DNA of 60,018 nucleotides, the filler included, from Sluysia triapertura (lineage: Eukaryota), in NCBI GenBank assembly GCA_046118255.1. It is 4 parts of 4 records of this genome, joined end to end, with 100 filler letters (N's around TTAATTAATTAA, not from the genome) between each part and the next. Parts side by side here need not be neighbours in the genome. Positions count along the whole stretch, not along the records: positions 17,908 to 31,098 come from JBJNIA010053664.1; 3 more parts are not named here. The stretch is one strand, 5' to 3'. Under the pieces are notes generated by a model. The model was not told where the DNA came from. It saw nothing but the letters and a program-made list of their open reading frames with translations, and made no database searches. The position numbers and the translations under genes are program-made. Every line of letters begins with the position of its first letter. Position 1 is the stretch's first letter. Shown one piece after another: positions 17,783-58,119 of the stretch.

Positions 17783-17807
17783 CTGTAAAAAATTTATAAG
17801 TAATATA

Positions 17808-17907
17808 NNNNNNNNNNNNNNNNNNNNNNNNNNNNNNNNNNNNNNNNNNNNTTAATTAATTAANNNNNNNNNNNNNNNNNNNNNNNNNNNNNNNNNNNNN
17901 NNNNNNN
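17808..17907. other. Artificial contig spacer (44 N + TTAATTAATTAA + 44 N)
   Basis: The same 100-bp construction appears three times; TTAATTAATTAA gives stops in all six frames. Confidence 0.97.
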
Positions 17908-22169: not shown

Positions 22170-22390
22170 TAATTAAATTTGTTAGGTTTCACCACGACCT
22201 TCTAAAATCACACAGAATGCTTTAAAATTATTTATAAATGTCTAAAAACATTTTAAAAATGTCTATTTTCCAAAAAAGAAAATTCGCTTCTAAAAATAGA
22301 ATAGAAGTTTCTATAATGTTCCAGAACCATCCATCGATTTTCATTGGCTGATAATTAGTATATAAACTAGCATCAGTTTGATTAAAATCG
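22170..22390 (-). repeat. Dispersed repeat family R1, copy 3
   Basis: CCATCGATTTTCATTGGCTGATAATTAGTATATAAACTAGCATCAGTTT; upstream flank also resembles 2900-2990. Confidence 0.7.
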
Positions 22391-23442: not shown

Positions 23443-24534
23443 ATGGATATAACTAACAACATTTTACCACCAATGACACCGGAAAATCCCGATTTTGACA
23501 AAATTAATAACTGTAATGATGTTTTCGAACTTGACTTAGATGTAATTATAGAAACATTAAATGATTTACGTAAATTTCCTTCTAAACGTGGTGAAATACC
23601 AAGTAAAGTTGTCCAAGGTATTTGTTTTTTAGCACGTCAAACATACGTTCAAAAACCGTTATTATTAGAAATTAAAGATTCAGTTATCGTAATTGGTGAT
23701 TTACATGGACAGTTTTATGATTTGTTAAGAATCTTAGAAGTTTTAGGACCACCACCACAAAATACATTTTTATTTCTTGGTGACTATGTCGACAGAGGCC
23801 ATCAAGGTGTCGATATTTTAATGCTATTATTAGCATATCAATTAAAATATCCTCAAAATGTTTATTTATTACGTGGAAATCATGAACAAAGCCAATTAAA
23901 TGAATTTTATGGATTTTATCATGAAATTGTAGAAAGATATGGAAATGAAGCTATGAAAGTTTGGAAGTCCTTTTTACGATTATTTCAAGAAATGCCATTA
24001 GCAGCTATTATTGAAGAAAGTATATTTTGTGTTCATGGTGGATTATCGCCCGTCTTTTTAGAACCCAGTTGCGTATCCATTCAAGAAGAATTTAAAAAAA
24101 TTTTAAGACCAGTCAATGTAGAAACTCATGGATTTGTTTGTGACATTTTATGGTCAGATCCTATGGATATTTCTGATAATGAATGTAACGGGTGGGAACC
24201 TAATTCTAGAGGTATTTCGTTTGCATTTGGTGCTGATGTTGTGGAACAGTTTTGTAACAAATTTAATATTAATTTGATTATTCGCGGACATCAAGTGGTT
24301 GAAGATGGTTATGAATTTTTTGCCCAAAGACGACTAGTAACAGTGTTTTCGGCGCCACGTTATTGTGGTGTTTATGATAATGCTGGTGGTGTTGTAGTAA
24401 TGGAAAAGTTAAAAGATACTGATACAAAAAATGGTGATTTATTAAGAGCTAAGTTTAAAGTTATTAAACCAGAAAGAAGATTCGTAACTACATTATGGTA
24501 TAACAGTGAAGAATTTGTACAATTACCTACCTAG
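23443..24534 (+). CDS. Serine/threonine protein phosphatase, PPP family, divergent PP1-like; single exon, 363 aa
   Basis: All PPP motifs present: GDLHGQ, GDYVDRG, LLRGNHE, HGGLSP, DILWSDP, RGHQVVEDGYEFFA, LVTVFSAP(R)YCG. Complete ATG to TAG. Confidence 0.95.
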   Translation: MDITNNILPPMTPENPDFDKINNCNDVFELDLDVIIETLNDLRKFPSKRGEIPSKVVQGICFLARQTYVQKPLLLEIKDSVIVIGDLHGQFYDLLRILEVLGPPPQNTFLFLGDYVDRGHQGVDILMLLLAYQLKYPQNVYLLRGNHEQSQLNEFYGFYHEIVERYGNEAMKVWKSFLRLFQEMPLAAIIEESIFCVHGGLSPVFLEPSCVSIQEEFKKILRPVNVETHGFVCDILWSDPMDISDNECNGWEPNSRGISFAFGADVVEQFCNKFNINLIIRGHQVVEDGYEFFAQRRLVTVFSAPRYCGVYDNAGGVVVMEKLKDTDTKNGDLLRAKFKVIKPERRFVTTLWYNSEEFVQLPT

Positions 24535-26369: not shown

Positions 26370-26530
26370 ATTGATGCTAGTTTATAGACCAGTCATCAAC
26401 TAATAGAAACCGACAGAGTGTTCCAGAATGTTCTTTTCTATTTTCTTTTTTAAAAAATACGTTTTCTTTTTAGAATCTAAGTTATTTTATTGAAAAATTC
26501 TTTAATATGTACTGTGGTGTCAAGTTTATC
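26370..26530 (+). repeat. Dispersed repeat family R1, copy 4
   Basis: TGATGCTAGTTTATAGACCAGTCATCAACTAAT...GTTCCAGAATGTTC. Confidence 0.6.
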
Positions 26531-27097
26531 GATAATAATTTTGTTATTCGTAACATTCAAACTTTTCCTTTCATTGTTACTTTCCTATATTAGCATAAAC
26601 AACAAATAATGTTGTGGAAATAAATGATTATTTATATTTATAAATCTTGAACTTAAATTCGAATAATATTTATTAATCACTTTAATAAAATCATTTGTTT
26701 TGAATCTGATCTCAATTATATAAATTATAAAATTATTGTAGTATAACTTTGGATCATTATTTATTTTATTGTTATATTGGATAAAACACAAAATAAGACA
26801 CAACAACTTTATTTTCTTAAATTACATTTAGATTAAAACTTAAAATTTGATTAATGTTGTTTGCTTCCTAAATAATTTAAAACAAAATAAATAAAAGAAT
26901 CGAAAATTCTTAATATCATAAGGAAAGTAAATAATAATTACTTTAGTGTTATAATCATTCTGTTACATCTTTTGTCAGATTGAGAATTTTACGAACATGA
27001 CTAGATAAATTTGAACTCAAATCAAAATTGTTTCTTATTTCAACAGCATTATGTGCGTAAATACAATTCTTGCCGAATCTGGAACATCTTCCATTCT

Positions 27098-27880
27098 TCA
27101 TTGTAACATAGGGCAATCACCGACTGTAAAATAGCAGGAGCAATCATTATTTGTTTGGATAACCTTATATGTTCTGAACTTAACTATTCCCATTCGTAGC
27201 GCTAATTGCTTTGTTCCATTGTTCATTCTAAAAGAATCCACATCTACGATGAATTTCATATATGGTCCTAATATCTTTTTAATGCTGATAGAAATGTCCG
27301 AACAGTTGTCAATAACTGAATCCATTCGATCACCAGGAAACAATAGAATGAAATTTTTGTGAAGCAATTTATGAATTATGAAGGAATTTGTAATTGATTC
27401 TAAATTTGTTGATGTTATATAACAAAAATTTTTAGTTAGAAACATTTGATATAAACACATTTGTTCAGACGTATGAGATTTCTTAGACTTCACATGGCAA
27501 GCTGATGAACATCTATTCACTAAGCCAAAACTAATTTTACAACTGAAACTATCATGCGAATCGGCATTCCTTTCAATAATTGATGTTGTAATTCCTTCTT
27601 CTTTAGCAACTTTGTAGAGATAACGACCATCTTCTTTTTTCTTACACACACGTATTATTGTCTTATTATTAATAATAACTCCAAATTTGAAAACAGCACA
27701 TACTCCTTCTAATTGAAATATAAACGTGACTTCTTCGTCTTCTCCATCATTATTGAAGTAAATTAAATCTGAGGAACAAGTTGTGAGTAAATCATTTACT
27801 TTTATACAATTATTTACTGATTTTAATTCGAAATAATCGTTATAGTCCTCTAATGAAATTAGTCCACATGTTATAAGCAT
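27098..27880 (-). CDS. Intronless ORF with an N-terminal VIT (vault inter-alpha-trypsin) domain, VWA5A-like, and an unassigned C-terminal half; possibly decaying
   Basis: CGLI...LKSV...LIYFN...EVTFIFQL...AVFKF.V.INNKTI....KKKEDGR..Y..AKEEG....IIE..ADSHDSFSCKI follows the VWA5A-type VIT pattern recalled from memory (CGL...PLKS...LNYEN...EAFFVFP...AVYSFEA.V...I......K..A...Y..A...G...LLE...SRDVFSC.V). No VWA domain follows. The frame stays open 20 codons past the TGA. Confidence 0.75.
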   Translation of the reverse strand: MLITCGLISLEDYNDYFELKSVNNCIKVNDLLTTCSSDLIYFNNDGEDEEVTFIFQLEGVCAVFKFGVIINNKTIIRVCKKKEDGRYLYKVAKEEGITTSIIERNADSHDSFSCKISFGLVNRCSSACHVKSKKSHTSEQMCLYQMFLTKNFCYITSTNLESITNSFIIHKLLHKNFILLFPGDRMDSVIDNCSDISISIKKILGPYMKFIVDVDSFRMNNGTKQLALRMGIVKFRTYKVIQTNNDCSCYFTVGDCPMLQ

Positions 27881-27961
27881 TTTAGTTAGCCTTTGTCAAA
27901 ATTTTTTCTTATCAACAATTTTTTAATAATAATCTTTGATAATCCATTTTCTGTATCTGAG

Positions 27962-28229
27962 TGGCTGCCAAATCAAAACGCAAAAAGTAGATGATGTGAA
28001 TAGTTTTAATTTGGCAGTCATCCAAACACTGAGAAACAAAAATAGCAAATACATGTCATGAACTGTCATCAGTCGACAGTTAGTAAAATAACATTAAATG
28101 ATTTAAGATGCTTGTCGACTGATGGCAGGTTACTAATATTAAATTTTTGTGAACGCCGCAAATAGAACCACTATCAGTAGTGACACTAAATTGTTATTGT
28201 AAATAAATAATGTCGCCACTGGTAGTGGT
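27962..28229. other. Three-hairpin array of module C
   Basis: Arms 27962-27979/28003-28020 (16 of 18 Watson-Crick), 28063-28078/28113-28128 (15 of 16), 28167-28185/28211-28229 (16 of 19). Loops 23-34 nt. Confidence 0.9.
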
Positions 28230-29394
28230 AGTTACAAAGTTAGTAGTTTGATACAAATAAATAACAAATTAGTGTATAAATAAAACAAAATAATAAAATT
28301 GCTAATTAATTAAAAAAACAAATTTTTTAATTCTTTATGCTGAGAACACAATCTTTCTATTTATTTCTTTAGTTTCTTAACATATTAAAATTCTTGAGTT
28401 CTTGAACTTTTATTTCTTACATATTTAAAATTATCTTAATATAGCTGATTTTCTTAGTGTGGATGAGAATTGAAGAATTGTGAGCTTGTCGAGTTTCTTA
28501 GGTTGCTTATAGGGCTTATGTGCTTCTTAGGTTATGTGTTGCGAATGAACTGTTTTTTACGAAGTTTTTATTTATCACTTGTTACATCTGAAAGTGCCTG
28601 TGATTTCTGTGCGGTTATAATATGGATTTGAGAAGTTTTGAATTATTTTGAAGGTATAATTGTAATTCTGGTGTTGCGAGATGATGAATGAAATGTTTTA
28701 ACTGGGTTTTAATATGTATTAATGATCTGAACTTGAATGTAATTTTAATGTTGTGTTTTATATGAATTTTTAAATATAGTTTGACGTTTTTGAAAAAAAG
28801 TAAGGTTTGTTTGTAGAAGATTGGAACTTGAAAATGCATTGGATTCGTTTTAAATGTATATTTGATGGTTTTTAAGATATAAATTGTAGTTCTAATATTG
28901 TGAGATTATGAGTTAAAATGTCCTAAATGAAATTTAACTGTGTATTAATGATTTTAAACGCTAATCGATGTGATTATGAGTGAAAAGTTTTTTATGAATC
29001 TTTAAAATGTATATTGTAGATTCTGAAGGTGAATGTAGTTTGTAACAGTAATAGATTGGCCACCACAAATAATACTCTACAAATTCTAAACCTCACACCA
29101 AAATCATTTATAATAATATTGTAACTTTCGAACGAACTTTCCTTTCCCTCTGACCATCATTCACATCATTTTTATCATTACTACCCATATTATTTTTATA
29201 ATTTTATTATTCTATTATTCTTATTATTTTTTATTATTTTATTATTTTAATTATTTTATTATTATCTGATAGAAAATTTTAAAATAGTAATGCTATTGTT
29301 TTAATATCGTACATTACAATTATCATATGAAATTTTTAATTTGAAGATTTTTTAAACGCGTTTTATTGTATTATTTTTTGAGATATTTTTTATC

Positions 29395-30155
29395 AAATTT
29401 GAGTAAACGAAGATATATCCAAGGTCGCGGGATGCTGACTTTCGTGGACTTGTGTCCTGTCGCGAACAACGATATTAATAACAACAATCTTATACTGATA
29501 TTTTGTCCCACAATTGGCCAAGGTGATCCAGTGGATAATATGATACAGTTTTGGAAAAGTATTATGAATAGACATTATCCTAAAATACCAAATAAGTTTG
29601 CAATGTCTGGCTGTTTAGTTCTGTTTATATAGACGTCTACTACGGTTTGGTGGGTATAATATTACTCTTTTGTACTTGGGATATGAACCTCCGAGAAATG
29701 TCTTTTGTTCAATTTGAGAACTGCTCTGATTATGACTTGATGTAGTAATGATCTACCTATCTAATAGTAGATGTTCTACTGTTTCAATTTTCGAATCAAC
29801 TAATTTAAACCACAAAAGATCTTAACTATGTTTAGTCGTGATAAATATTTCAAATTTGCTAATTTAGCCAAAGATATTAATTCAATGTACGATCTATTAT
29901 CTTATGTACTCGATGTAAACATAATGCCAAATAAACTTTAAAAATTTAAACAGTCACATTAGTGATCCAATGAAAGGAGAATGTGTTGGAATTGATCGGT
30001 TTTGGGGATCAGGATGAGCTCTTCGAGTATTTCTATGTCCCAAAACATTCTGTAATTGAAGTTACACAAACTTCTCTCAAGCCACACGCACATTTGGCAT
30101 TGAAGTACGGGTAAATATAATCCTATTTACACCCCGAGAATATTCCAATTTCTAA
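29395..30155 (+). pseudogene. NDOR1: NADPH-dependent diflavin oxidoreductase 1 pseudogene fragments
   Basis: LILIFCPTIGQGDPVDNMIQFWKSIM (compare [25 protein letters not shown]); then SRDKYFKFANLAK near 29835 (compare GDSSYAKFNFVAK); then KENVLELIGFGDQDELFEYFYVPKHSVIEV near 29975-30065 (compare REKLLEF...GQEELFEYC.RPRRTILEV) and TPREYS near 30130. Stops, frameshifts and a large internal deletion. Confidence 0.8.
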
Positions 30156-30294
30156 CATAACACTAGACATATTAGTTTCAAAGTTTCAGATTAAAACTAA
30201 AACCATGTACCGGACAAAAGGATCAAATCAAATTATGATAAAAATCAAATTATCATATTTATGTAATTTTCTGATATGTTTAATATCTTATAAT

Positions 30295-30395
30295 CATTAT
30301 AAAATTTTTAGTTGTTGTGAAATAGATAAAAGAAGTTTTTATTTTCTTATTTGTTGTTCATTTAAAGAATTAATCTTAGGCCTTAAGCCTACCGT
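30295..30395. repeat. Dispersed repeat family R3 (TTAA.CTTAGGCCTTAAGCCTA); inverted copy at about 40825-40925
   Basis: TTAATCTTAGGCCTTAAGCCTA at 30370-30391 versus TAGGCTTAAGGCCTAAGGTTAA at 40826-40847, with collinear flanks. Confidence 0.6.
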
Positions 30396-31098
30396 TCATT
30401 CCCAGTACGGACCGTAATTCCCATTTAGCAGATTAATTGTAATTAATTTAAATAATTTCTTTTTATTACGAATTCTTCAATTAATAAAACATCCACCAAA
30501 TCCTAATGCTTCACAAACGATAGAATTTTATGATATGAAAAAAATATTATAATTTTATTATTATTATTATTAGTATTATTATTGTTAGAATTATAATTTA
30601 ACATTGTAATTATACATTGTATTTACATTTGTTTTATTTATTAATTTATTTTTATTATAGAAAATAAAATATTTGAAAAAATAAACAAAATTATGAAAAT
30701 AGAATTAAGAATTATTTTAAAAAATTAATAAATTAATAAAATAAAATTGTAAATTAAAATTAATTGAAAAATATAATTATTAGGAAATATTGTTGCGTCT
30801 TTAAAGCTTATCAAATATCAAATTCACTATTAAAATCTTATTCAGCTAAAATCCCAATAGTTTCAATAGCTAGTATACTGAATTTAATTTTCTTATGTTC
30901 TACCTTTTTAATTATAACGAAAACTATTATCCCAATTCAAATACTTAAAATCAAAACCAAAACTAAATCGATATTGTATTCTTTAAACAAAAATTCGTAA
31001 TACAACTTGTTAGAAATGTAGGTCTCTACTAAAAGTTGATAATTACTCAAATGACAGAATGAGAACGATGTTTATACTAAATTAAAAATACTACAATC

Positions 31099-31198
31099 NN
31101 NNNNNNNNNNNNNNNNNNNNNNNNNNNNNNNNNNNNNNNNNNTTAATTAATTAANNNNNNNNNNNNNNNNNNNNNNNNNNNNNNNNNNNNNNNNNNNN
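31099..31198. other. Artificial contig spacer
   Basis: 44 N + TTAATTAATTAA + 44 N. Confidence 0.97.
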
Positions 31199-31214
31199 AT
31201 TAGGAGAAGGGATG

Positions 31215-31266
<52 letters not shown>
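31215..31266. repeat. (ATT)n microsatellite
   Basis: Uninterrupted ATT run beside the contig end. Confidence 0.95.
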
Positions 31267-31267
<1 letters not shown>

Positions 31268-31799
31268 AATATATAAAATGTATTAAATATTAAAAAACAA
31301 AAATATAAAAATATAATTAAGAAAATTAATTTTGTTTTAAAATTATTAAATTAATTTTAGGAATAAAAAAATACTTTAAAAATATTTTAGAAATAAAGAA
31401 GATAAAGGAAACAATTATTTAAGAAGTTTTGAAGAAAATAAAGAAAATAATTAAAATATTTAGGTAAGTGAAAACAATCTAATATAAATGGATTAGGAAT
31501 TGGCGAATAAATTACAATTGCAACAACCACAACAAAAGTTTTAGAATAATTTTATCAAGATTCCTGAGCTTCATTATGAATCAAATTCTTCCATGATAGC
31601 GGGAATACTAAAATCCGACTTAAACTTTTATTTATTTTCTGTACCAACACCTTAAATAGGGTTGGGTAATATATACCTAAAATCTTAATAATCAATTACG
31701 TATTGAATTATAACTAACTTTACTATCGTTATTATATTTGTTTACACTCTGTATCATAGTTTTTAGTTTGAAACGTCAATTAATATGTAAAGAATAAAA

Positions 31800-32420
31800 G
31801 AATAAAATTCAAATGATAATTTCGAATAAATAATTGTAATTATAATATAATTATACTTGTAAATAATAAATAATTCTTCTAAAAGTATAATTGTAAATAA
31901 TAAAATTTTTATAAAAGTTCTTTTAGAATTATAATTGTAGATAATAATAAAAATTTTTTAAATCTGTAAATAATAAAATTTTTTAATTTATTTTTCGAAT
32001 AAATTTAGTTTATAATATCAAAGGATGTTTATATGATTTTCGAATAAATTAATTTTATAATTGAAGGATGTTTATGTGAATATTATTATCGGATATTTAT
32101 ATTTTTAAGTTTGAATTATTTATGCGATTTAATCGGATGTTTATTATTCATTTTATGTAATTTAATTTCACCATCGGATACTTATTATCGGATATTTATA
32201 ATTATTTATGTAAATTAATTTCAACAAAGGATATTTATATTTTTCGTAATATAACTTAACAAATAAAGCGAGTATAAAAGACGTGAAACGTTCAGGTTGC
32301 AAGGAATTTTTTGGATACAACGAGTTCAATTTTCATATTTTGGTACAAATTATAAATTTGGAGAAGACTATTAATTATTTGGATACGACCAGCCCAATTT
32401 TCATATTTTGGTACAAAGTA
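31800..32420. repeat. Degenerate minisatellite region
   Basis: Recurrent TTGTAAATAATAAA units (31830-31980) and GGAT(G/A)TTTAT units (32020-32240), plus a duplicated TTGGATAC...CAATTTTCATATTTTGGTACAAA (about 32310 and 32380). Confidence 0.65.
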
Positions 32421-34569
32421 TAGATTCGGAAAATATATTTTGGTTCAAATCGAAATTATCTTCAATTGGTGTCCACTGCGTTCATTTGGTTCAGCTACAT
32501 CTGATAGGAAATTGGAATACGAATCTATTTGAAATTTTTAGTAAGCTTTATTTGTTAAGTTACCGACCATATTATTTGGTCTTAAAATACACTTAAATTT
32601 TCTCATAATATTTTCTAAGTAAACCCAAAGGTACCCTCTGGGTCAAAATCGACTAAAAATTTAAAGTTTATACAATTATTATATATCTTTATTAATTTGT
32701 GTCATTTATTCTGTTTATCACATCCAAGTTACTGATTATACATTTTATCTAAATTATTGTCATATTTTTGCGTTTAACATTATATTTAGTAATAAAAATT
32801 TAAGATTTGATTTTTTTGTTGATTAAATTTTAGTAACAATTTAAATTAAGGAATCAAATTAGATCATTCAAGGCAAAGTTTATTTTTAATTGAAGAATAT
32901 TTTACATTTTTGTTACATTGAATTTATATCTTCGTTCTATTAAATTTAATTTACATTTTGCTATATTTTTAACAATAAATTTTAAAAGACAAATTTTAAT
33001 TCTGTGTATTAAAACGTTATAAGATAAAAGTTAGATTTTACTGATAGAATTGAAATTAAGGAGTTCAAAAAATAATTTAACAAGAAGTCATTTGAGTAAA
33101 TAATTTAAGTTTTCTCGATACAGTTTAGAGATATAAATTTATAGTACAACATAGATATAGTTATAAAAAGGTTAAAGAAAGTTAAAGAAATTTTTATATT
33201 TAAGTATTAACAAAGAATAGAACAAAGTTTAATATTAAAAAGATAAAAGAGATTATATCAAAAGTGTAACATAATTATATAACGAACCATTTCCTTGAGT
33301 ACATTAAAAGAATAATCGGATTAAAGTGCAACCGTTGTCATATACATACAAAACATAAAATAGTCAGTGTCTACCTCTTTCGTTCATTTGACAAAGCTTT
33401 AAAATCCTACGCATTCGTCCATTTTTTGATAAATCGATTGACGTAGGCGGACCCAAAATCTAAAATTATTAATTTTATAATTGTTCGACAAGTTAAGGGA
33501 AAACAGAACAATTGTAATATTTAAAAATAATAGCTTAAAAACTTTAATGCTTAAAATATAAATGAAAATGGAAATTTATTTAGTGATTTTATGTCGATTC
33601 CGTTATATGGAATCGTTAAGACAGATTTTATTTGCTAGAATTAAATTCTAGCTTCTTGAAAGCAAAGGTAATTAAATGTTAACAAATTTTAAAACTATAC
33701 AATTTATCAGTAATAATATTAATAAATTACGGAACTATTTTAGTTAGTTAACTAATAAAATAATTTTAAAAATATATTTTACCAAGGATCCAATATATGA
33801 TCCAAATGAATTAACTGAATTTACGTAGATTTTGATTGTGATATTTTAGAAAATATCGATCTTATTTTAATTAAACTAAGGTGATTGCTAATAAAATATT
33901 CAGATTAAATTCGATATATATTCCAAATAGTTGTTACCAAGATTTTGCTCCGCTCGAAAATTTAAAAATTTTTTTTCTTGCGTGTTTTGTGATAATTGTT
34001 AAAGTTTATAAAGTTGTTTTAGTCCGACCTTGGTCAGACTAAAACAAACCGAAAAATAATTTAAATAATTTAAAATAATTGAAATCACGTTGAGTTAAAT
34101 TGAATTATTAAATCAGATTAAAATAAATTAAATTAACTTAAAATAAATTACATTAAATTAAAATAAAATCTCACTTTATCCAAAATGAAAATTGAAATAA
34201 AATAAAATATTACATAGACATGTTATCCAAAATCAAAATTCAAAATTGAAATAAAATAAAATATTATATAAATCAAAAAACAATAGATAATTATATGTTG
34301 AAATCAAAATTTATAATTGTGTCATGAGAAATCAATTAGTTATTTACATCATAGTTGTTTGTGTCATGAAAAATCAATTAGATGTTTACAATAATATATA
34401 GAAACCATAAAGTCTGTAACCGTATTTATTGATAAATATATAAAGTAATATCTAAAAATTCATTTACCAAAAATAAAACCTGAATATCGACCTAAATATA
34501 TTTAATTACCTACAGTTTAACTTTCAATATTAGTTGTAAAGGCATTTATTTGAAACTTTTCACAAAATA

Positions 34570-34671
34570 CACCTATCTCCCGATTTACACGGTAGATAAA
34601 TTAAAAATTTTCAAATGCGATAATAACAAAAAAAACTTATTTGGAAAACCGTGTAAATCGGGGGATAGGTG
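34570..34671. mobile_element. 102-bp Tc1/mariner-superfamily (pogo/Tigger-like) MITE
   Basis: 24-bp terminal inverted repeats CACCTATCTCCCGATTTACACGGT / ACCGTGTAAATCGGGGGATAGGTG (one mismatch), with TA on both sides (34568-34569, 34672-34673). Confidence 0.85.
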
Positions 34672-37149: not shown

Positions 37150-37215
<66 letters not shown>

Positions 37216-38384: not shown

Positions 38385-38530
38385 TTAACTCTTAACCTAC
38401 GGCGGAATAAAATTGAGCAGGATCCGGTTACAGTAAACGACTTATGACACATAGATGGCGTTCCTGCAACTATCAATTGACAAATCTTAACGTAATTAAT
38501 AGTTAGAGGGTTCTAATATCAACAATTTAA
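38385..38530 (+). repeat. Dispersed repeat family R2, copy 2
   Basis: AACCTACGGCGGAATAAAATTGAGCAGGATCCGGTTACAGTAAACGACTT...TAGAGGGT. Confidence 0.7.
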
Positions 38531-40647: not shown

Positions 40648-40650
<3 letters not shown>

Positions 40651-46170: not shown

Positions 46171-46655
46171 TAATAATAAATTATTGTAATTTTATTATAT
46201 TATAATTTATTTAGATTAGCGTATATTACGTATATTATTTAGATTACGAAAAGAAATATTTTATTTTATTCAGATTATTATATGTTGGTGTAATATGTGG
46301 TGAATGTTTGTGGTAGACCGTGTTAGGAGTTTATGTATGAGTTGAACACTACACTGAATTCGAAGAACTTAATGCTAGCCTTGTTGTGAATACTTACGAA
46401 GAACTCAATGAGGTAAGCTGATACCCTTAAGTTTAATTTGGTTGTCTAAACTACTTATGCTTATGTAATAAGTCACGTTATGAATTAAAAGTATCCTATG
46501 TTTACTCTTTATATTACTAGACTTGTCAAGTTTATAACTTTTATAGAAAATTTCATTTTTTTTATTTTTTAACGTTTTAATTATTTCGAGTTTATAAATA
46601 AAAATTAGAAATGTGTGATACACCAAATAAAACTTTATTAAATAACTAGAAAAAT

Positions 46656-48084
46656 TTAATTCAATAATAGATTTTTGTTAACTGGTAATTCAATCTTTCG
46701 TTTGACCTTTTTACGTTTCGTCCCATTTTTTCGCAGAGATTTTTGTTGCACTTCGTATATCCGGCTAAGTCTTCTTTTGACTAAATTAAAGTTATATAGA
46801 TATATAAAGTTAAGACTAACAAGGTTATAGATAAAAACAAACATCGTCAATCTTTGTATTCACGTTTATTTGATTATCGAGTAGATTCGTAGAGTCGTTG
46901 TCAGGTAGTATTGCATTAAGCAAACAGGAATCATAGTCCCGTACATGACGTTGGTAGATACCGCTGGTAGATGAACTTTGTTCTTGAGAATTAACATATA
47001 ATATCGATGGTTTTTCAGTATCGCTGTCATTAGCCACAAAATCTTGAATTTTCAAAATCTTGCTGAAACTCATCGCAATGGATTTCTAATAACTCTTCCG
47101 ATTCACATGATTTTTCATCAATAGGAACAAGACCTCTATTACTTATCTTTATGGGATCTTCCTTAACATTAAATAAAACACGAAGATAATACTGTAACAA
47201 CTTAGATAGTTCCAACTTTTTTGGAGACTGAACGATTGCTTTAATTTTCTCTTCTACTAAAGGTACGTTATTTATATCATCTACATCACGTTTTTCATTA
47301 GTATGAACTGGAAAATTAGAATTACATGAGATTTCACTCTTATCTACAATTATCCGGATAACGTTATCCATTACAATTAGAACTTTCAATACATACGTTG
47401 TAACAGGATATCCAGTATGAAATGTTAATTTGTTTCGAAAAATAATTGTTTTGCCTTGTAATCTTGGTAATATTAGTGAATCTGCTTGAAATAGTATTTC
47501 TTTTTCAAAGCTATCATTAATTAATGAGGAGTTAACCAAATTATATTTTGAAGGTACATCTAGTAGGCACTCGACATTGTTTTGTGATCCGCTTTGTCGT
47601 AACCAGTGCTATTTGGCTGAGATGTATTGTGTTTGGTTGTAAGTGGTTCATTTGTTTTAAAATAAGCATTACTAGTAACAAGATTAAATTTATAAACCTC
47701 TAAAACATCTTCTTTGATTGTTCTCTTTGAATCTCTAAGAGTAAAACTATCGTAATCCATTAATCGTCGAATCCATATATCTTCATTTGGTATATCCGTG
47801 AATCTTACGTCGTTATCTGTTACTGGTAATACTTTTTCATTTATTAAACCGGTAATTTTCATAAAATTTTCAACTGAATTATCATATTCTTCTTGATCGA
47901 AGAAATTAGGATCCATATCATTAACAGGAATACATTGTTTGGTATGAATGCAATGATAAAGATGATTTGATTCGTCGTGAGTATACAAATTTTTCAAACT
48001 TTCATAGATAATTTGATAATCGGTAATCATTTCATTTGTTAAACTGGTCGTTTTCATAATATTCCTAGTACTGTTGAATAACAT
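46656..48084 (-). pseudogene. Cargo ORF of module A: about 470 codons broken into four abutting frames, unknown family
   Basis: ORFs 48084-47560, 47539-47030, 47073-46825 and 46850-46656 tile the interval on one strand. Basic C-terminus KRRLSR...RKNGTKRKKVKRK. No env, RT or transposase motif recognised. Confidence 0.65.
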
Positions 48085-48225
48085 TATGAAGATTATTTCT
48101 TTTTCAATTCAATACCAATTGCGCAGAAGTGAAGTTTTGTAATATAAAAATTTAATTGTACTCTAAAATTTTAATTGTACTAACTCATTAGTAATGTTTA
48201 TTAGCTACTAAGTGGTTTTTCAGAC

Positions 48226-48514
48226 TGTCCAATCAGAGTATTTTAAGAATATTGAGAATTATATGCACTCTGATTGGGCAATGACAAAAATTAATTTTCG
48301 AAAAATATTCACAAATCAACCACCGTCATCAGTACTGTCATTCTAATGACATTTTTAAACAGCGCAATCAGCACTGATGACGGTAGCAACTACTTTAATA
48401 CGCTAAATTAAAAATTGGTAAAAATATTATGTACTACCGACAGTAACAATAATAATTAAAACAATAATAATAGTAATAACGATAATAACAATAGTAATAT
48501 TGTTATCATCAGTA
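48226..48514. other. Three-hairpin array of module A
   Basis: Arms 48226-48239/48267-48280 (TGTCCAATCAGAGT, 13 of 14) and 48322-48337/48369-48384 (ACCGTCATCAGTACTG, 15 of 16). A degenerate third stem runs about 48432-48451/48498-48514 around an AAT-rich loop. Confidence 0.85.
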
Positions 48515-49331
48515 AATAAAATTGCAGAAAATCATCTTTGAACTTTCTACACGATCTTTTCTGTTATATTCTTTAACGTCCTGACATATATAAAATTAAA
48601 AGGCCTAAAACTAATGAAATGCTGTGAAGGAACAACGATAACAAGGTATACTCGTCTCTGTCATCGCTGTTGCTTCATATTTAAAATAATGAACTCTTTA
48701 AGACTTTATTAAGTTTATTTATAAAGGTAAAAGAATGACTTGAGTTATACTTAAGACGAAGAGTGTTAGTATAAAGTTTGTTAAGATTTGATCCCTGAAT
48801 ATGATAGTTTGAGATGGTTATTGAAAGGTTGAAGTTAATTTAGTTTTAAATGATGATTACAAAATAAATCTTAACGTATTTGTATTGTTATTAAAAATGG
48901 TTGTTGATGCTAAATATGTATAGATAAAATGGATTTAGCTTGGTGTAGTTGATGATTAAGGATTTTAATGTAAATGCTTTATTTTTCTGAAGTACTTGTT
49001 AGCGTTATTGTATGGTGTTATTATATTCATGAATTGTGTATGATATGCTATGGTTGTGGCTTGTTTGTTAGGATATCATAGGTGAATGTTGTGAATTATT
49101 TGAGATTAAATGTCGAAGTTTGTTGTGCTGTGGATGGTTAAAAGTGTTAGTCGAATTGTTGATGTGTGTGAGTTGATGATATATTATAGATATCGAGTGT
49201 TTATGGTAGTTGGTAGTTCGGTAGTAAGAAATGTGATTGTTTTGAAATTTGTATTTTGGTGAAGTTTAACTTGTAAATATTGGATGTGGTGTTTTGATAA
49301 ATTTTAAGTTGAGTGTTGGCCACTACATCAG

Positions 49332-49339
49332 CCCCCTCT
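49332..49339 (-). promoter_or_regulatory. Polypurine tract of the Gypsy element
   Basis: AGAGGGGG on the minus strand, about 50 nt after the integrase stop, followed by CTGA and then TGTAGTGG. Confidence 0.8.
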
Positions 49340-49391
49340 GAAGAAGCGGAGCGGTATATTTTTATTTTTGTAATAGATCTGGTATCTTCAA

Positions 49392-52369
49392 TTAAATTGT
49401 ATGTAAACCTTGTTGGTTTAGTAGGATGGCAGTGTTGTTAAAGGTTACTGATTTTTCTGTTGTTAGATTATGGGAATCTTCTTCAACTAACATGATTGTT
49501 GGTTTAAGTTTACACCAATTTACTGTTTTGGATTTTCCATCGATGTTGATTGAAGCTGTATTATTGTTTGTGTTAAAGTGAATAATTTTGTATGGACCGG
49601 TGTATCTTGGTTGAAGAGATTTTGGATTTTCTGTTTTGAGCCACACGAATTTACTATCTAGAATATTTTTTGGTATAAAGATATGAGGAATCTCGTGACT
49701 TGGTAATTTATTTAGCTCGTTGAAATATTGCGCAGAAGAGGTGAATATATTTTTTCTGTGGGATGATCATTTTCAAATAATTCAAATGGTACCCTAGTAT
49801 TAGTTCCAAATACAATTTGGGCTGGGTAGTATCCTGTTGAAGAATGAGGGATATTACGCCAGCCTAATAGAATTAGTGGTAAAGCATCGACCCAATTGTG
49901 GTTTATTGATAATGCGCGCAAGGAGTTTTTTAGAGTTCTATGAAATCTCTCTATCATACCATTAGATTGTGGGTGGTATGAAGTTGTTCGTAGTCTAATA
50001 GTGCCAAGTTGTTTGAGTAGATTGTTGAAAAGGTTAGACTCGAACTGAGCTCCTTCATCTGTGATAATTCTTTTAGGGACTCCGAAACGTGAAATCCAGT
50101 TTGTTATTAAGATTCTGATTGATTGATCTAATTGGGAACGCTTCAGGCCATCTGCTGTGTCGGTCCAATATGGTTAAAATATAAGTATATCCACGTGATT
50201 GTGGCAGTCGTCCGACTATATCCATATGTATGGTATCGAAGAGTTGGCCAGTGGGGAAGTGAAGCGTTTGAGGTTTTATGTTTTTGTGAATTTTCACCGA
50301 TTGACAGGTCAAACAAGCTTTACACCAGTGTTTGATGTCTTGGCGCATTGAAGGCCATATTACTTTTGAATGTAGTAATTCTTATGTGGCCTTATCCCCG
50401 GCGTGTGTCATGTTGTGAATGTGTTCAAAAGCTTTAGTCCGGAGTTGTCCTAATACTGGTCGAGAAGTGCCAGATAATTCCACTCTGTAATGATGGTTTT
50501 GTTGAGAATTTGGAAATTTCTTGACTAGTTGGTGGGTTGTTTTGTAACTCCTCGACTGTGAATATTGATTGGAATTCGATGCTGTTTAAACCTACACGTG
50601 ATAGTGCATCGGCGACCACATTTTCTTGTCCCGGGATGAATTCTATGTTAAAATTGAATTGGGACAAGTAGCTAATATGCCATTGTTGTCTTGGAGTAGG
50701 GTTTTTCATTGTAAAGATGTGTAACAACGGTTTGTGGTCTCTTCTGAGTGTGAATTGCGCTGGGAGTAGTAGATACTCGAAATGTTTAACGGAAAGATAA
50801 ATCGCGAGCAATTCATGGTCAAATGCCGAATATCTGGTTTGTTGTGCAGAAAGTTTGTGGGAGTAAAATTCAATTGTTCTGGTTGTATCTTGTTGGTTTT
50901 GTGTTAGAACTGCGCCTATTGCTGTATTCGAAGCGTCAGTTGTTAAGGTAAACGGTAGATGTTGTGGAAACGCTAAACTTTCCATTTTCATAATTGCTTG
51001 TTTTGTTTGTTCAAAAGATTCCAGAGATTTGGTATTCCAGTTGATTTGTTGGTTTTTTTCCCGAAGATAGTTCTGTTAGAGGTGCTATTGTTTCTGATAG
51101 TTTCGGGATGAAACGTCGACAATAATTGACTAGGCCCAAGAAACTCCTCATTTGTGTGACTGTTTTAGGTTGAGGAAAGTCTCTTATGGCTGTTATATGG
51201 GTTTAGAGTGGTTCTATCCCGTCAACAGAGATGTTGTGGCCTAAAAAGATGATTTTGTTTTTGAAAAATTGACATTTATTGATTTTGATTATTAAATTAT
51301 TGTCGGAAAGTTTTTGGAATACTTGTTCCAGATATATTTGATGTTGTTTGAAATCTCTGGAGGCAATTATGATGCCGTCTATATAGGCTGTATTGAAGGT
51401 TAAGCCTTGAAGAACTTGATCGATATGACGTTGAAAAGTTTGGGCTGCGTTTCGTAGACCGAAAGGCATGCGTAAATACTCAAACAGGCCGAAAGGAGTT
51501 GTTACGGCTGTTTTTGGTATATTCTCAGTATGTACTGGGATTTGGTGATATGTCTTGGCGAGGTCTATTGATGAGAATATTGTACAACCAGTAAATCTGT
51601 GAAAGATGTCTGTTATGAGTGGCACAGGATATGCGTCTGGAACGGTGACTTTGTTAAGCATTCTGTAGTCACCGTATATCCTTATTGTTCCATCTTTCTT
51701 GTTGACGATTTGCAGAGGTGCGGCCCATGAAGAAGAGGAGCGACGCACTATTCCTTGTTTTTCCATTTCAAGGAATTCTGTCTCTGCTTGAGAACGTATT
51801 TTTTGTGCAAGTTCTCGTCGTCTTTGTCTGCACGGTGGTGTAGGTATAGTTTTTATAAAGTGTTCTGATTTAGGAACATATTCTGGATTAAATTGTTCAC
51901 GTAATAAATTAGGGTGAACTTTTTGTAGGTATTGGGTTATGTTGTTATTGTTGAGATCCTCAAGTTTGATTTTGATGTTGTTAAGTTGTTGAGTGGACTT
52001 TGTTAGAGTTTTGTTGTGGCAATCGACTAGGAGTTTATAATGAGTTAGGAAGTCTGCTCCTATTATCGGTTGCTGGATTGCAGCAATTAGAAAGGTCCAT
52101 TCGAAGGTTTCGTTGAAGTGTGACAATTTGAATTGTAATTTTGTGGATCCGAAGCAGGTAACAGTTGTCCCATTTGCTGCTGTAAGAAATGCGCGTGTCT
52201 GTGGTGTGTTTTTGATGAAATGTTGAGGAATTGCAGACACGGCAGCTCCAGTGTCTATCAGAAAATCCAATTTGGGATATTTAAAATCGATGAAGGTAAG
52301 TGGCAGTGTGAAGATACCATTGATTGCCAATTGTTTCGGTATAGCTGCTTTGACCGTTGGCAGTTTTAG
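49392..52369 (-). pseudogene. pol: Ty3/Gypsy pol (protease, RT, RNase H, integrase), disrupted
   Basis: LIDTGAAVS; YRMLNKVT; RMPFGLRNAAQTFQ; YIDG (catalytic YxDD mutated); TDASNTAIGAVL; DHKPL; NVVADALSR; CKACLTC; HMDIVG; IERFHRTLK; RYTGPYKI. Domain order PR-RT-RH-IN is Gypsy. Several stops and frameshifts. Confidence 0.96.
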
Positions 52370-53454
52370 TTTTTTGTAGGGGATCTTAAATTTTGTTTAA
52401 AGTGGATGCAGCCATCCATGCATCTTTTAGAAGCTTTTTGGAAGTGTGAATAATATACACACAAGTTTTTAATTGTTAGGTTTGTAGATTTATTTGGAAA
52501 TCTACATCCTAGTAGACAAGATTTAGCTTGTTGTTGGAATCTGTTGTGATAGTAGGAGATTCCGTTGAAAGGTCGTTTGTTTCGCGTAGATCTGTTTGAA
52601 TTGGAAGAATTGGTTGAGAATGTGGGAGAACTGGTTCTTTTTGTTGGAGAGTTCTCTCTTGATTTTGAATATAGAATTTTAGTAAGATCGGCAACTTGTT
52701 TTGTAAGATTTTGGACTTGCACTAAAAGATTTTGTGTTTCATTATTGGTTGTTGTAATATTAAGTTTTTGGCTGCTGGAAGAAGAATCATTCATTACATA
52801 GAGTGGTTGTTGATGGTTCTTGTTCCATACAGCGATTATATTGTCGGCGATCTTAGCCAGTTCGTCGATTTTGGTGTTTTGTGTTCCTACGAGTATGCCT
52901 TGAACTGTACGGGACATAGCGTCGAGGAATAAACGTTTTAGGACATCGTGATTTTCATCGATGTCACAACCAAAAGGTGCTAAGTTCGTTTTTATTTTCG
53001 CCAAGAATTCGGAAGGTGTAAGAGTACCTAATGTTTGTACTTTAAAATAATCTTGAAAAACCTTTTCCGAATTTGTTTTAGATCATCATATGGGGATTTA
53101 GATGTGATGCATGTTTGAATCTTTGGGCTGATCTTACTTAGTAAAGCCTGGGGCAGCATTGCTAATGTATGATTAAACTTAGCGGTTTGATGTTTAATCG
53201 CGTTAGTTTTGAACATGGCTTCGACGACTAAAAACCATGTGCTTTGAGAACCTGTGTCATCCAAGAAAAATTTAGATGACGACGGGGTACTGATATTTGT
53301 TATTTGGTCTTATTCAGTACGTGGTGGAATTTCTGGGTCGTCATCTGTGCCGCCGGGCAATTGGTGGTTAATTGATATAGTAGCCCCCTGTGGGATTTCA
53401 TAGTCGCTAAATCTTAAGTGGGGACGTAAAGGTTGCGCTTGATACGTAAACCAT
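52366..53454 (-). pseudogene. gag: Ty3/Gypsy gag, disrupted
   Basis: WFLVVEAMF...KFNHTLAML...PYDDLK N-terminal gag pattern; LKRLFL..M...VQ.IL; LAKIADNI; C-terminal YYHNRFQQQAKSCLLGC and CVYYSHFQKASKRCMDGC Cys/His motifs. Start near ATG 53454 is inferred through a frameshift and a stop. Confidence 0.85.
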
Positions 53455-53529
53455 GCTTATTAATTTTTACTGTTGTCACAACTATGGATCTTTTATAAAT
53501 CTTATAATAATTTTTAGAGTTAATCAAAT

Positions 53530-55003
53530 AATAATATGTCTTGAATCTATATTTGAAGTTAATTCTTATAATGGTAGAAATTTTAACATAAAGCTGACAG
53601 ATTAAAATCAAGGTCTTAGTATTAAGATCTATTATTAAACAAATAAAATTTTGAACATGAATTTTTATTTCACAAATTTTGGGAATTTGAAAATTAACAG
53701 TAATTGTATCATAACAACTATCATATCCTACTCGCCGGCATTTCACGATCCTGTATTTACCTAGAATGACTAAAAGGCAGTTAAATAAATAAATCAATTT
53801 AAAACTTACAAAATTGTTATTAAGTAAAATTTCATAAAAATTATCTGCAATCGCATTTGTGTCTCCAGGTAATGGTACGACAAGCTGCTGATTTTTTGAT
53901 ACCACAATGCTAACTAAAGACATACCGTGAGATAATGATTCGCATGTAAAAACATCATCCTTGAAAGGTCCTCGACAACTAAATCTTTCATCAATTAATA
54001 ATTTATAATCTATGTTCGAATAAAGCATCTTTATTAAATAGATTGATCCGTCTTCTTTTAGAATATCTGCAGCATATTATAAGTGTGTCTTGTAACATCT
54101 CTAAAAATTGTTTCATTTAATTCAAACGAAGTTGAATAGCTACTTAACATTTCCCAAACACAATCTAAAAGGACCAAAAAAGGAGCTTCGATTAATTTGC
54201 GAAGATCTGTCAGCATAATTTCCACTTTATCAAATACGAAATCATTATTCTTGAATAGTCCATCTCCTAGTGTTGGAGTTTTAATTAAAGCGGATTTTAA
54301 TCTTAAATCCACCAATTCATACTGATGTCGCAATAATTTAATTATCGGATCAATGTAACTCATTTTTAATGTCACATTTGAATATAGACTACATCGCATT
54401 AAACTAGACTCATTTCTTTCATGATAACATGCTAAAACTGAAAAACGATTATTGACATGCATTCTGAATGATATAAAAATATTTTCATGACTAACAAAAA
54501 ATGGAATCATAACATATTTACCATAATTGAAATTGTTAGAGCATAATGAATTTGGAAGGTGGGCCCACTTTCTTGATATTATGGATTTTAAGAATTCATA
54601 TTTTAGTTGAAATTGATTTCAACACTTTATATTAATCTTGAAAGTTGGTTTAAACCCAAATGAATACAAATCATCTATCTTGTAGCTATTAATAACTTTA
54701 TTTAAAGATAATATTAGATTGTTTATTTTTTTTAGATAACATCTTTAATAAGAACCAACTGTACGCTTTAAAATCTTCGGTTCTCAACATCATAGTATAA
54801 TCATTAACAATCCTCACACCATCAATAGTTCGCAATATCAAAGAAAATTCTCTATCCTTTTTTTCCGTTTCGATTATCATCATAGAATGACTAGAATGAC
54901 ATAAAACACCAGTTGAGATATACGTTGAAAACAGCATTAATTTTACATCGATATTTTTACATGGCGTAATAAAACCGCTATACATTTTAACGTTTAACTC
55001 CAA
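53530..55003 (-). pseudogene. Cargo ORF of module B: about 490 codons in three broken frames, unknown family, directly upstream of gag
   Basis: ORFs 55003-54698, 54510-54058 and 54028-53414 lie on one strand with coding-like sequence between them. No visible similarity to cargo A or C. The 3' end is uncertain. Confidence 0.6.
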
Positions 55004-55178
55004 AGAAATCTAAATTTCAATTTTTTTGTCTGGAAAATTTTTGATTTAGCCACAATACTAGTGCGATACAATTTCTAATTCTGTCTGCAATTTCTCAATT
55101 GTCTGATTTTTATTGAAACTAATTTTTTGTCTCTTTTTAAAAATTTGTGAATTAATTTTCTTATTGTCTATTTTTAAT

Positions 55179-55415
55179 CCACCCAATCAGATTACTAATA
55201 AGTAAGACAAAAGGTGATCAATCTGATTGGGTGGTGTGTTAATGAAAAACTGGAATTATTGAAATATTGATGACTGATTACTGACCGTCATCAAACGTTG
55301 ACAGTCTAATGAAAATGTACATAGGCTGTCATCGTTGGTGATGGCAGCAACTAGTTTAAACGACTTGGTGTTAAATTTTTATTTTTAATTATAAAAATAC
55401 AATAATAATAACAGC

Positions 55416-55456
<41 letters not shown>

Positions 55457-55508
55457 TAATAACAAAATTAATAATAATAAGAATGGTAAAATTATTGCTG
55501 TTATTATT
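55179..55508. other. Three-hairpin array of module B
   Basis: Arms 55179-55193/55220-55234 (CCACCCAATCAGATT, perfect 15), 55281-55308/55322-55347 (imperfect, about 22 pairs), 55404-55421/55491-55508 (AATAATAACAGCAATAAT, perfect 18, loop expanded by AAT repeats). Confidence 0.88.
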
Positions 55509-58119
55509 CTTACATAATAAGAAATCACATAAATCTTTAAAAAACCTTTAACATAATCTTTTCTTTATAATCATAAAATATTTCCTTACATATAGATGAA
55601 AAATAAAAAGAACAAAATGATGTTACATTGTGAAGGAAGAACACTAAGTAAATGTATAATGTATAATTTGTAGTTGTTGCCTCACTACTATAAAGTTATC
55701 TTAAATTTGTTTTTAACAGATATAATGGTTTAGGTTGTAAGTAAAATGAAGAATGTTAGAATAATTTCTTGAAACTTATTAAAGGTTTATAAGATTTGTT
55801 CATTGGATAGAATGATTTGAAATGCTTAATGAAAGGTCGAAGTTATTTTAATTTTGAATGGTGATTACAAAATGAATTTTAATATATTGTAATGTTATTG
55901 CGAGTAATTGTGAATGATGAATATGTGTATATGAAATGGGTTTAGGTTGATTAAGGGTTTAGATGTAAATGATCCATGTTTCTGAGTTATTTGTTAGTGT
56001 TGTTGAATAATGTTGTTATGTTTATGATTTGTGTACTTTATATTGTGATTGTGGTTTGTTTGTTGAAATATTTTATGAATGAATGTTGTGAATTATTCGA
56101 GATTGAATGTCGAAGTTTGTTATGCTATGGATGGTTGAAATGTAAGTTGAGTTGTTGATAAATGTGAGTTGATGAGGTGTTGTAAATATCGAATGTTATT
56201 TTATGATGTTTGTGTTGGTGTAATTCGATAGAAAAAGTGTGATTATTGTGAAAATTGAATTTTAGTGAAATTTAATTTGTGAATATTACATATGAAATTT
56301 GATTAATGGCCACTATACTTTGGTTGTGAGACTGGAGAGATTACAAAATAAAAATTTCTAAATTTTTACAACACAATCACACAATCACAGGACAAAAGAA
56401 GATTTTCAGAATTAAGAAGATCCATGATCTTGGTAGGTATATTTTATTATTTTATTATTCTAATTTATTATCGTTGTAATATTGTTATAATATTTCCATT
56501 ATTATTATCATTATTATTTCATCTGTTTTTAAGGGAATTTCAAATCATTTGGTGGGAGACTCCTTTTGCAATATATTTTTTTGGACTTTAAAATTAGTTT
56601 AGTAAGAGACCATACACAATTTACTTTGCAAATATTTTTTTATTTATTACTTTTAAATTTTAGGAAGAATCTCTGCACAAATTTTTGCTGTAATATTTAA
56701 TTAATTACGTTTGGTTAAGCTGTCTAGAAAAATTGATATTTTTAGTGTCTGTTGCGTCACTCCTGGTTTCTTTAGTTATATTACAGTGTCCTTAATATTA
56801 TTATAAACATTATTTTAGCCAGTTTGAATATTGTTTAGTAGAGATTTATAATAATAATAAATTATATTTTGGTTTTTGTTTAATAGTAAATTATTGTGTC
56901 ATTTTGATTTGATTTCAAAGAGTTTAATTTTTGTGGTGAATTTTTAAAAACCTAAACTTGATTTATTTAGTACTTGGATAATTGAGATTCATTTTAAGCT
57001 AATTGAATTAATATTGATTTATCGTAGTTAATAATTTTTAAAGACACAACATTTGGATTAAATAATTTTTGATTTTTGGAAGGTTCCATGCCTAAGTTAT
57101 TTTTGGTAAAATCATTAAGAAATATTTAATTGAGTAATTTTGAATTTATAATTGTAAATCATATTAATTATAAATTTTTAGAGTCCACACATTTAGTTCT
57201 TATGTATAAACTTTTGCTAGTTGCGTCACCCTTGGTTTCTTGATTAAAATTAATTATCCGGTGCTAATTTCTATTAAATACAGTTTATATACATTTTACA
57301 GTTTATATAATTTGTACATTTTTATCTTTTAAGATTAATTTTTAATTATGAGTTTAGTTACATTTAGATAATTCATTAGTGTAATTGTAATATTTGTGTC
57401 TCATTGAATATAATTGAGTTGAATATTTTTATCTTAAATTTTAGACTTAATACAGGTTTTAAATTATCTAATTAGTAACAAGGAGTTATTGGGAAATGAC
57501 AGATTTATTTGTGTTATTGTTAAGAAAGAAAGTCTTAAATTTGTAGTGATAAATTGATTTTAAGAATATTAGATTTCGACATCTAGATCAATTATTTATT
57601 GTTATGTAATTTCATAGACACAATATTTATTTAGGATATTTAACTTTTATTGTGATAATATATAATATATAAATGAGTTTAAATCTTATTTTGATTCTCT
57701 GAGTTTTGAATTTAAAAGTTGATTTAAATTATCCTTTTTTTAGTTTACACTTTAACTGATTTCAATTAATATAATGAAGTTAAATAATTTCACAATTCAA
57801 ATAATGGTAAAATAATTTTATAAATTTCAGACCTTTTCCTGGTTTTTGAAAAGAACAAGTTAGTACAATATAAAATTTTATCATTTTTTACTTATGGAAC
57901 TTTGTCTTTATTATTAAATGATTTTAGGAGTTAGTATCAAGTTTTAAGTTTCGCTTATAAAAAAAGGATAATTAAAATAGTCATAATATTATTTAATTGC
58001 AGTATATCCGTTTTTAATAAAATAAAGCAACCAATATTTGAAATCAACCATTTTATTTATTGATTATAATTTAATTTATTTTGTTTATATATTTTCATTT
58101 ATAACTTAAGGTCTTTATC

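Follow-up and report, generated by a model that had tools for sequence, protein, structure and literature searches.

The window, the whole stretch of 60,018 bases analyzed in this study, consists of AT-rich animal DNA (16-40% GC by kilobase) that includes spectrin-repeat exons at 9396-17851 and an ion-channel N-terminal exon at 36123-37535; composition and gene content suggest that the host is a free-living flatworm. Three segments within it, designated C, A, and B, are 2.5- to 3-kb long terminal repeats (LTRs) of a CsRn1-like Ty3/gypsy family and lie on the minus strand (Table 1). The initial annotation had described these segments as modules that combine hairpins with a cargo open reading frame (ORF); the hairpin array and the ORF are indeed present, but the LTR nature of the modules had been missed. 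The window also carries an intronless 363-aa ORF for a PP1-like Ser/Thr phosphatase (23443-24534), which lies amid repeats and is a possible retrogene, a 1.2-kb tandem duplication (18105-19294 and 20052-21259; 61%), and a dispersed repeat with an inverted copy (2010-2220 and 59813-60018; 87%). Filler of 100 bp occurs at 17808-17907, 31099-31198, and 46071-46170, and an identical 12-bp AT filler is found in the middle of each of these stretches.

Table 1. Coordinates of the LTRs, ORFs, hairpins, and associated features in the window
Feature	Coordinates	Strand	Remarks
Solo LTR C	26610..29067	-	2,458 bp; termini TGTGGTGG...CCACAACA; 5-bp target duplication AATAA
First ~600 bp of LTR C	28468..29067	-	Sense strand C-rich, G-poor (U3-like)
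Conserved block	28330..28440	-	ATAT-GTAAG ... AGAAAGAT; splice-donor-like or TATA-like
C hairpin 3, second type II unit	28167..28229	.	19- to 22-bp stem
C hairpin 2 (type II)	28063..28128	.	16-bp stem, 34-nt loop
C hairpin 1 (type I)	27962..28020	.	18-bp stem, 23-nt loop; core CCAAAT, not CCAAT
Cargo ORF of C	27098..27880	-	260 aa; N-terminal VIT domain, Pfam PF08487, E 7.9e-12
LTR A, 3' LTR of gag-pol element	46283..49327	-	Start certain; end 46283 or 46309
A hairpin 3	48424..48522	.	Weak AAT-rich stem, under scan threshold
A hairpin 2 (type II)	48320..48386	.	Core CCGTCATCAG in both arms
A hairpin 1 (type I)	48225..48281	.	Core CCAATCAGA in both arms
Cargo of A	47030..48084	-	Two ORFs that overlap (174 and 192 aa, stop to stop); no family match
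Polypurine tract	49328..49345	-	Sequence
Broken gag-pol	49392..53350	-	Gag, protease, RT, RNase H, integrase with GPY motif; several frames
LTR B, 5' side of gag-pol	53362..56317	-	Start TATAGTGGCCA certain; end 53362 or 53376
B hairpin 3	55404..55508	.	18/18 bp, AAT-rich, 69-nt AAT loop
B hairpin 2 (type II)	55278..55350	.	~23 bp, decayed in this copy
B hairpin 1 (type I)	55179..55234	.	15/15 bp paired
Cargo of B	53414..54985	-	Three frames: myotubularin N-terminal part and truncated phosphatase domain, then 220-aa frame without family

On the minus strand, all three LTRs start with T(G/A)T(A/G)GTGGCCA. LTR C is a solo LTR with TG...CA termini and a target duplication. An empty site near 41406-41455, where the target repeat runs without interruption, confirms this: AATAA is present on both sides of the LTR, and each flank of C is continuous with the empty copy (0/300 shuffles apiece), whereas the interior of the LTR does not match it (111/300 and 300/300 shuffles were as good). 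An end of LTR C at 26513 was dropped after this comparison. Since C is a solo LTR, the hairpins and the whole of the 260-aa ORF lie within the LTR. The C-G skew of the first ~600 bp is 0.49 in C, 0.61 in A, and 0.74 in B, and in the LTR-to-LTR comparison the alignment of the first 600 bp of C with A or B is lost. The first 430 bp of LTR C contain an internal tandem duplication (28637-28824 and 28861-29059; 68% identity).

At the start of LTR A, a polypurine tract is followed by TGTAGTGGCCA, and the same junction of polypurine tract plus TGTAGTGG is seen in two relatives, L006 and L015. LTRs B and A flank gag-pol; however, they are not the sister LTRs of one insertion, since they are 66% identical over 1.1 kb, with no identity across the cargo, carry unlike cargoes, and have no matching target duplication at their candidate ends. 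The element at 46283-56317 either arose by recombination between two subfamilies or is a chimera of the assembly.

The gag-pol region gave Pfam matches to RVT_1 (E 1.4e-28), RT_RNaseH (E 2.8e-27), rve_3, and RVP, and its Gag has two degenerate CX2HX9CX3C motifs with one conserved residue altered in each. The protease-RT-RNase H-integrase order and the GPY/F motif, a criterion of the CsRn1 clade, are present. The tRNA-Trp primer binding site, found in 7 of the 10 related loci examined, is absent after LTR B in this copy, and the target duplication at C is 5 bp, not the 4 bp of the clade; for these two reasons the element is called CsRn1-like and is not placed within the clade. No array was found after the polypurine tract in the first 34 of 63 RT-related loci (GC, 33-66%), most of which have little LTR sequence, and an RT search of viral contigs confirmed 0 of 24 candidates. 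In the relatives L011 (2719-2758 and 6978-7017), L013, L016, and L018, a 14- to 15-bp hairpin abuts the polypurine tract; L011 also has two tandem LTR-plus-primer-site junctions, with LTRs of ~150 bp.

There is no DNA similarity among the cargoes of C, A, and B. The VIT match of cargo C begins at profile position 2, and its Atlas neighbors are all VIT (score, 0.85), which we regard as a lead only. Cargo B matches myotubularin (PF06602, E 2.6e-11) and aligns, from residue 12 of both proteins, with P0001, a 224-aa truncated myotubularin in public data (E 4.1e-13 and 2e-12; 42% over 106 aa), possibly an LTR-borne copy too, from a related animal. The match of cargo B to MTMR1 in the PDB omits residues 264-406, and the catalytic CX5R loop is absent from the translation; cargo B is predicted to be a myotubularin without its catalytic middle. 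Given where the P0001 and VIT alignments start, the cargoes begin near natural N termini. Two of the three cargoes (VIT and myotubularin) are host derived. No relatives were found for cargo C among 250 candidates in the protein search, for cargo B among 414 candidates from longer proteins, or for cargo A among 152 candidates; PDB matches of cargo A and of the last frame of B were not significant, and none of 6 window proteins had an exact match in the protein collection searched. Another candidate, P0002, was rejected as a repeat artefact.

At 80% identity, contigs of run X1 covered all 30 bins. Summed contig depth in this run, which is possibly the source sample, is not copy number and cannot rank the parts; it was 51,000-250,000 over gag-pol, 29,000-49,000 over the first 0.6 kb of A, ~2,400 over the A hairpins, 330-1,010 over the A cargo, 13,600 over B hairpins 1 and 2, and 500-9,500 over the B cargo, and run X2 had the same shape. 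These depths hint at a large family with a common start and variable cargo.

The stems quoted in the initial annotation were all recovered in place, and 7 of its nine hairpins passed an inverted-repeat scan, but A3 (given as ~48432) and B2 (given as 55281) fell below the threshold; 18 contigs lack one base of B2, at 55293. The scan of all 60,018 bases returned 15 matches, 8 of them within the three hairpin zones (6 of 9 when loops were restricted to 10-45 nt), and in no zone did base shuffles reach the observed count (0/200 per zone). Region C folds with z scores of -7.0 on the minus strand and -7.3 on the plus strand (0/200 dinucleotide shuffles), and single hairpins fold at -14.5 to -34.7 kcal/mol. 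Matches of a hairpin-motif scan in 120 prokaryotic and 24 viral stretches were set aside as chance, because BLAST of 207 loci against the three LTRs gave one 25-bp match. The strongest inverted repeat of the window lies elsewhere, at 34568-34673 (26-bp arms, 1 mismatch, 54-nt loop), and is MITE-like; an 18-bp inverted repeat at 8809-8888 that starts with TTAACCCC and has a 44-nt loop is possibly a small DNA-transposon remnant.

The array lies upstream of the cargo in all three LTRs, although not directly so, as had been claimed, since the gap from hairpin 1 to the ATG is 82, 142, and 194 bp. Its distance from the LTR start in C, A, and B runs from 810-839 to 1102-1139 bp. Each unit is an inverted repeat of ~60 bp, as independent tiny MITE insertions might be; however, the units are collinear and at fixed offsets in all three LTRs, and beyond these LTRs a profile of the hairpin zone detects no other full copy anywhere in the window. 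The initial annotation had held that independent insertions without a fixed position would count against its claim; the position relative to the LTR start proved to be fixed, for which reason such insertions are rejected as exceedingly improbable.

The array is made up of two conserved hairpin types and a variable third. Type I comprises C1, A1, and B1, and type II comprises C2, C3, A2, and B2: C2 and C3 each match A2 and B2 (z, 3.6-6.4; 0/300 shuffles), whereas C3 matches neither A3 nor B3 (z, 1.1 and 1.3), which are AAT-repeat stems. The three hairpins are thus not the one-to-one homologues that they had been taken for. The suggested tandem duplication of C2 and C3 is weakly supported by direct comparison (12/300 shuffles reach the score) but well supported indirectly, through A2 and B2.

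That both arms change together, as initially noticed, was borne out by hairpin 1 of C, A, and B, in which 6 of 15 anchored columns are changed on both sides, 6 are invariant, and 3 are changed on one side; three different states occur in one column, and Watson-Crick pairs fill 42 of the 45 cells. RNAalifold gave double changes in 6/16 pairs of this hairpin. Two-sided change is found in 4/16 columns of hairpin 2 when C is compared with A, and the four type II units covary in 6/15 predicted pairs. A double change occurs even inside the CCAAT core, which reads CCAAAT in both arms of C1. It is concluded that the covariation is real and that pairing has been kept as the sequence changes (n = 3 LTRs). 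The argument for RNA from G-U pairs, on the other hand, did not hold: the 7 stems that passed the scan have 8 mismatches, every one a transition, and in the extended stems 11 mismatches are G-U on the plus strand, 14 are G-U on the minus strand, and 19 are transversions. As any transition is G-U on one strand, these counts carry no strand information; the mismatches in these old copies are probably decay after insertion.

The statement that structure rather than sequence is conserved needs to be amended: pairing is kept through double changes, but the stem cores are conserved in sequence too. Similarity between copies in the loops, the spacers, and the stretch to the ATG is at shuffle level, and the cores appear to be the best-conserved sequence between the distant LTRs. 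Stem and loop lengths are kept while loop sequence is not (hairpin 1 loops of 23, 27, and 26 nt). Taken together, the LTR setting, the offset, and the double changes identify the array as a fixed cis-element of a long, gene-carrying LTR family.

Since the arms match over 14-23 bp, a length that extends past any core or 7- to 9-bp protein site, and the CCAAT core is altered in both arms of C1, either pairing has been selected or one arm has been copied onto the other. Template switching can yield double changes without selection, and it creates and fixes stems (PMC8794818, in the part of that text available); with three LTR copies, it is inseparable from selection on RNA structure. Selection is nevertheless the simpler cause, because template switching would have to match the pace of substitution across subfamilies that are 35% apart.

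A conserved block upstream of the hairpins bears on what the pairing is for. Its sequence is ATAT-GTAAG in LTRs C and B and ATAT-GTCAG in LTR A; its similarity exceeded that of shuffles for C-A (0/200) and A-B (2/200) and was not significant for C-B (42/200). Within the 1,188 nt that precede the ATG of C, GT(A/G)AG occurs solely in this block; B carries the motif at the corresponding position, against a background of 0.87 per kb. An unspliced transcript would have 4-6 upstream ATGs before the cargo ATG. Each of the three LTRs has a poly(A) signal past hairpin 1; with a background of 0.76 per 100 nt, it is not used as evidence.

Our preferred explanation, which we advance tentatively, is that the stem-loops are selected in the RNA of the element as a packaging or dimerization leader. 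In retroviruses, tandem leader hairpins are the packaging and dimerization signal, and loops of 19-34 nt fit single strands better than cruciforms. The pairing would be selected while the element is single stranded: transcription would start near the end of the first ~650 bp of the LTR, and the stem-loops would form in the genomic RNA leader, where they would serve as the packaging and dimerization signal. The ATAT-GTAAG block would be a splice donor, so that the hairpins and upstream ATGs would be removed from the cargo mRNA and the hairpins would be retained in unspliced RNA only, and stem sequence could drift between subfamilies so long as the arms match. A link between the conservation of long R regions and stem-loops has been described (PMC3601003, in its accessible part). 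Several observations run against this explanation: neither folding (z, -7.0 versus -7.3) nor G-U pairing (11 versus 14) shows a strand preference, the donor-like site is GTCAG in A and such motifs arise in the background at the rate given above, an unspliced cargo ATG would come after 4-6 others, the stem cores resemble transcription factor sites and recur unpaired in another repeat, and template switching could account for the double changes.

A close rival, possible although we consider it doubtful, is that the array is a U3 promoter or enhancer acting as DNA, in which an inverted pair of CCAAT boxes and one of TGATGAC sites direct transcription of the cargo, perhaps along with transcription the other way, from a point immediately past hairpin 1. 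The arms would then be kept alike by template switching in the course of reverse transcription or replication, and folding would be a by-product. The core CCAATCAG occurs 4 times in the window versus 0.7 expected, always in A1 and B1, and GTCATCAG occurs 8 times versus 0.6 expected, counts that speak for a promoter although related copies are not independent. TATATA-CCAGTCATCAG-CCAAT also occurs unpaired in 5 copies of an unrelated repeat family (0 expected), the type II arms contain on inspection the mini-palindromes GTCGAC and CAGTACTG, and the N termini of the cargoes lie 82-194 bp downstream of the array. Paired palindromes are likewise reported in the cis-regulatory half of maize Sirevirus LTRs (PMC4728375, as far as its available text goes). 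However, CCAAT, the NF-Y site, is found in 4 of 6 type I arms (those of A and B) and is missing from both arms of C1; the core-to-core distances in hairpin 1 (36, 40, and 39 bp) are not in one helical phase; the arms match outside the cores too; TATAWAWR is present at the conserved block in A only; and conversion would have to be at least as frequent as substitution. The DECA-CCAAT composite, in which GAnnGAC lies 11 bp before CCAAT according to the part of the preprint available (bioRxiv 10.64898/2026.02.16.706105), was not found, the core GA-T-GAC sitting ~50-100 bp from CCAAT on inspection. The promoter and packaging explanations are not exclusive, and the hairpins may work as RNA or as DNA.

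The repeat family with the unpaired motif is old (>1 kb, ~60% identity; 2993-3014, 8078-8099, 22343-22364, 26383-26404, and 39014-39035), and in the block that it has kept best a TATA box lies next to GTCATCAG and CCAAT. In two copies, A(A/G)ATGGCG, which we take to be YY1-like, lies ~80 bp away.

It is rather unlikely that the hairpins are small-RNA precursors, miRNA-like or producing hairpin small interfering RNAs (siRNAs), through which the LTR tunes its own silencing or host genes. Their spans of 55-73 nt would suit this role, as would stems that are conserved at the base and drift, with compensation, further in, a pattern resembling seed conservation; LTR microRNAs of foamy viruses are a precedent in the partial sources consulted, and the Sirevirus palindromes are siRNA hot spots (PMC4728375, same portion). 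The type I stems of 14-18 bp with open loops of 23-27 nt are, however, too short for a 22-nt duplex, and the folding energies are weaker than the -40 used for 111- to 114-nt maize precursors. The Rfam search proposed in the initial annotation gave no family at gathering score in the window (best E, 0.15 and 0.25).

Slightly less probable still is a neutral origin, in which inverted repeats arise and are repaired through fold-back at one LTR hot spot, and stalling of RT may incidentally set the place of cargo swap. The capacity of template switching to create and fix stems, cited above, would provide the means, and the number of hairpins varies. In addition, A-B similarity stops just past hairpin 1, and in one contig a B-like hairpin 1 is joined to an A-like hairpin 2 (55248 to 48317). 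Against such an origin, C keeps the offset, order, and geometry of the array even though alignment with A or B has been lost over its first 600 bp, and the cores are conserved whereas the loops are not.

A bolder extension of the packaging explanation, which is unlikely as a whole, is that in a large animal gypsy family the LTR is an exchangeable gene cassette: a shared ~650 bp would be followed by a spliced-out packaging array and then a host-derived ORF (VIT, a dead mini-myotubularin, and others). The stem sequence, specific to each subfamily, would pick the dimer partner, copackaged RNAs would swap cargo beside the array, and each solo LTR would be a mobile gene.

Tf1-type self-priming involves pairing between the LTR transcript and the sequence that follows the 5' LTR. 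Self-priming by B was rejected, as pairing of its hairpin 1 site with the stretch after LTR B scored -10.5 versus a shuffled mean of -10.1; LTR A gave -15.8 (1/120 shuffles), the best among 7 targets. Complementarity of ~11 nt, which may be chance, is found between the stretch after LTR B (53358-53375) and the foot of hairpin 2 in LTR A (48314-48324, sense strand).

The element resembles CsRn1, PwRn1, and AgCR, as far as these are covered by the available parts of PMC2582038 and PMC3601003, in its protease-RT-RNase H-integrase order, GPY motif, and polypurine tract, and its degenerate Gag motifs are of a CX2HX9CX3C-like kind; the TGT start of C fits TGTGGYG among the terminal motifs given in PMC3601003, and no env was found. 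It differs from them in having an ORF within the LTR and in LTR length, which is 2.5-3 kb here versus 381 bp in PwRn1 (PMC2582038) and ~150 bp in the relatives L011, L016, and L018.

The best functional analogue, although not the same family, is provided by the LTR palindromes of maize Sireviruses, to the extent that they are described in the text of PMC4728375 available. In both, several paired inverted units that can form hairpins and vary in number occupy a fixed LTR zone, and structure is kept while sequence differs among families. Sireviruses are plant Copia elements with one 17-bp palindrome repeated ~7 times, no ORF in the LTR, and siRNA data; the animal element, a Gypsy, has two stem types with 19- to 34-nt loops and an ORF in the LTR. 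A Copia element with an CACCGGACtGTCCGGTG unit was not found, the domain order here being Gypsy and the stems different.

Foamy virus LTR microRNA cassettes, in the partial descriptions consulted, likewise place hairpins of ~60 nt in an LTR; the stems are shorter and the loops larger here. HIV (TAR and poly(A)) and MLV (psi and dimer signals) have tandem hairpins near the retroviral 5' end, and sag of MMTV is an ORF inside an LTR; these have no sequence relation to the present array, whose place in an RNA leader is proposed.

Bdelloid ORF3 elements (PMC5408684) and planarian Burro (PMC6431247) also carry family-specific extra genes of host-like origin; in the available parts of these sources, the extra ORF is a third one in addition to gag and pol, a portion of the polyprotein, or an accessory located upstream, and it is not described inside an LTR, whereas the solo LTR in the present study keeps a whole ORF. 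A literature search, mostly outside subscription papers, yielded no paper describing an ORF inside a gypsy LTR, and the accessible portions of PMC13238120, PMC8532177, and PMC11410931 contain nothing on gene-carrying LTRs of this kind.

The compensated stems offer a tractable high-copy case in which RNA structure selection can be weighed against template switching as the source of covariation. The LTRs are ~6 to 20 times the length of those in related elements and have different host-derived ORFs inside; solo LTRs would then scatter complete expression cassettes genome-wide, and such LTR-borne gene duplication would be a route distinct from ordinary retroposition. In conclusion, the hairpin array is a variant of known LTR cis-elements and, since hairpin or palindrome LTR zones are known from plants and retroviruses, is by itself a moderate finding; the gene-carrying LTR in which it is set is more novel than the hairpins.
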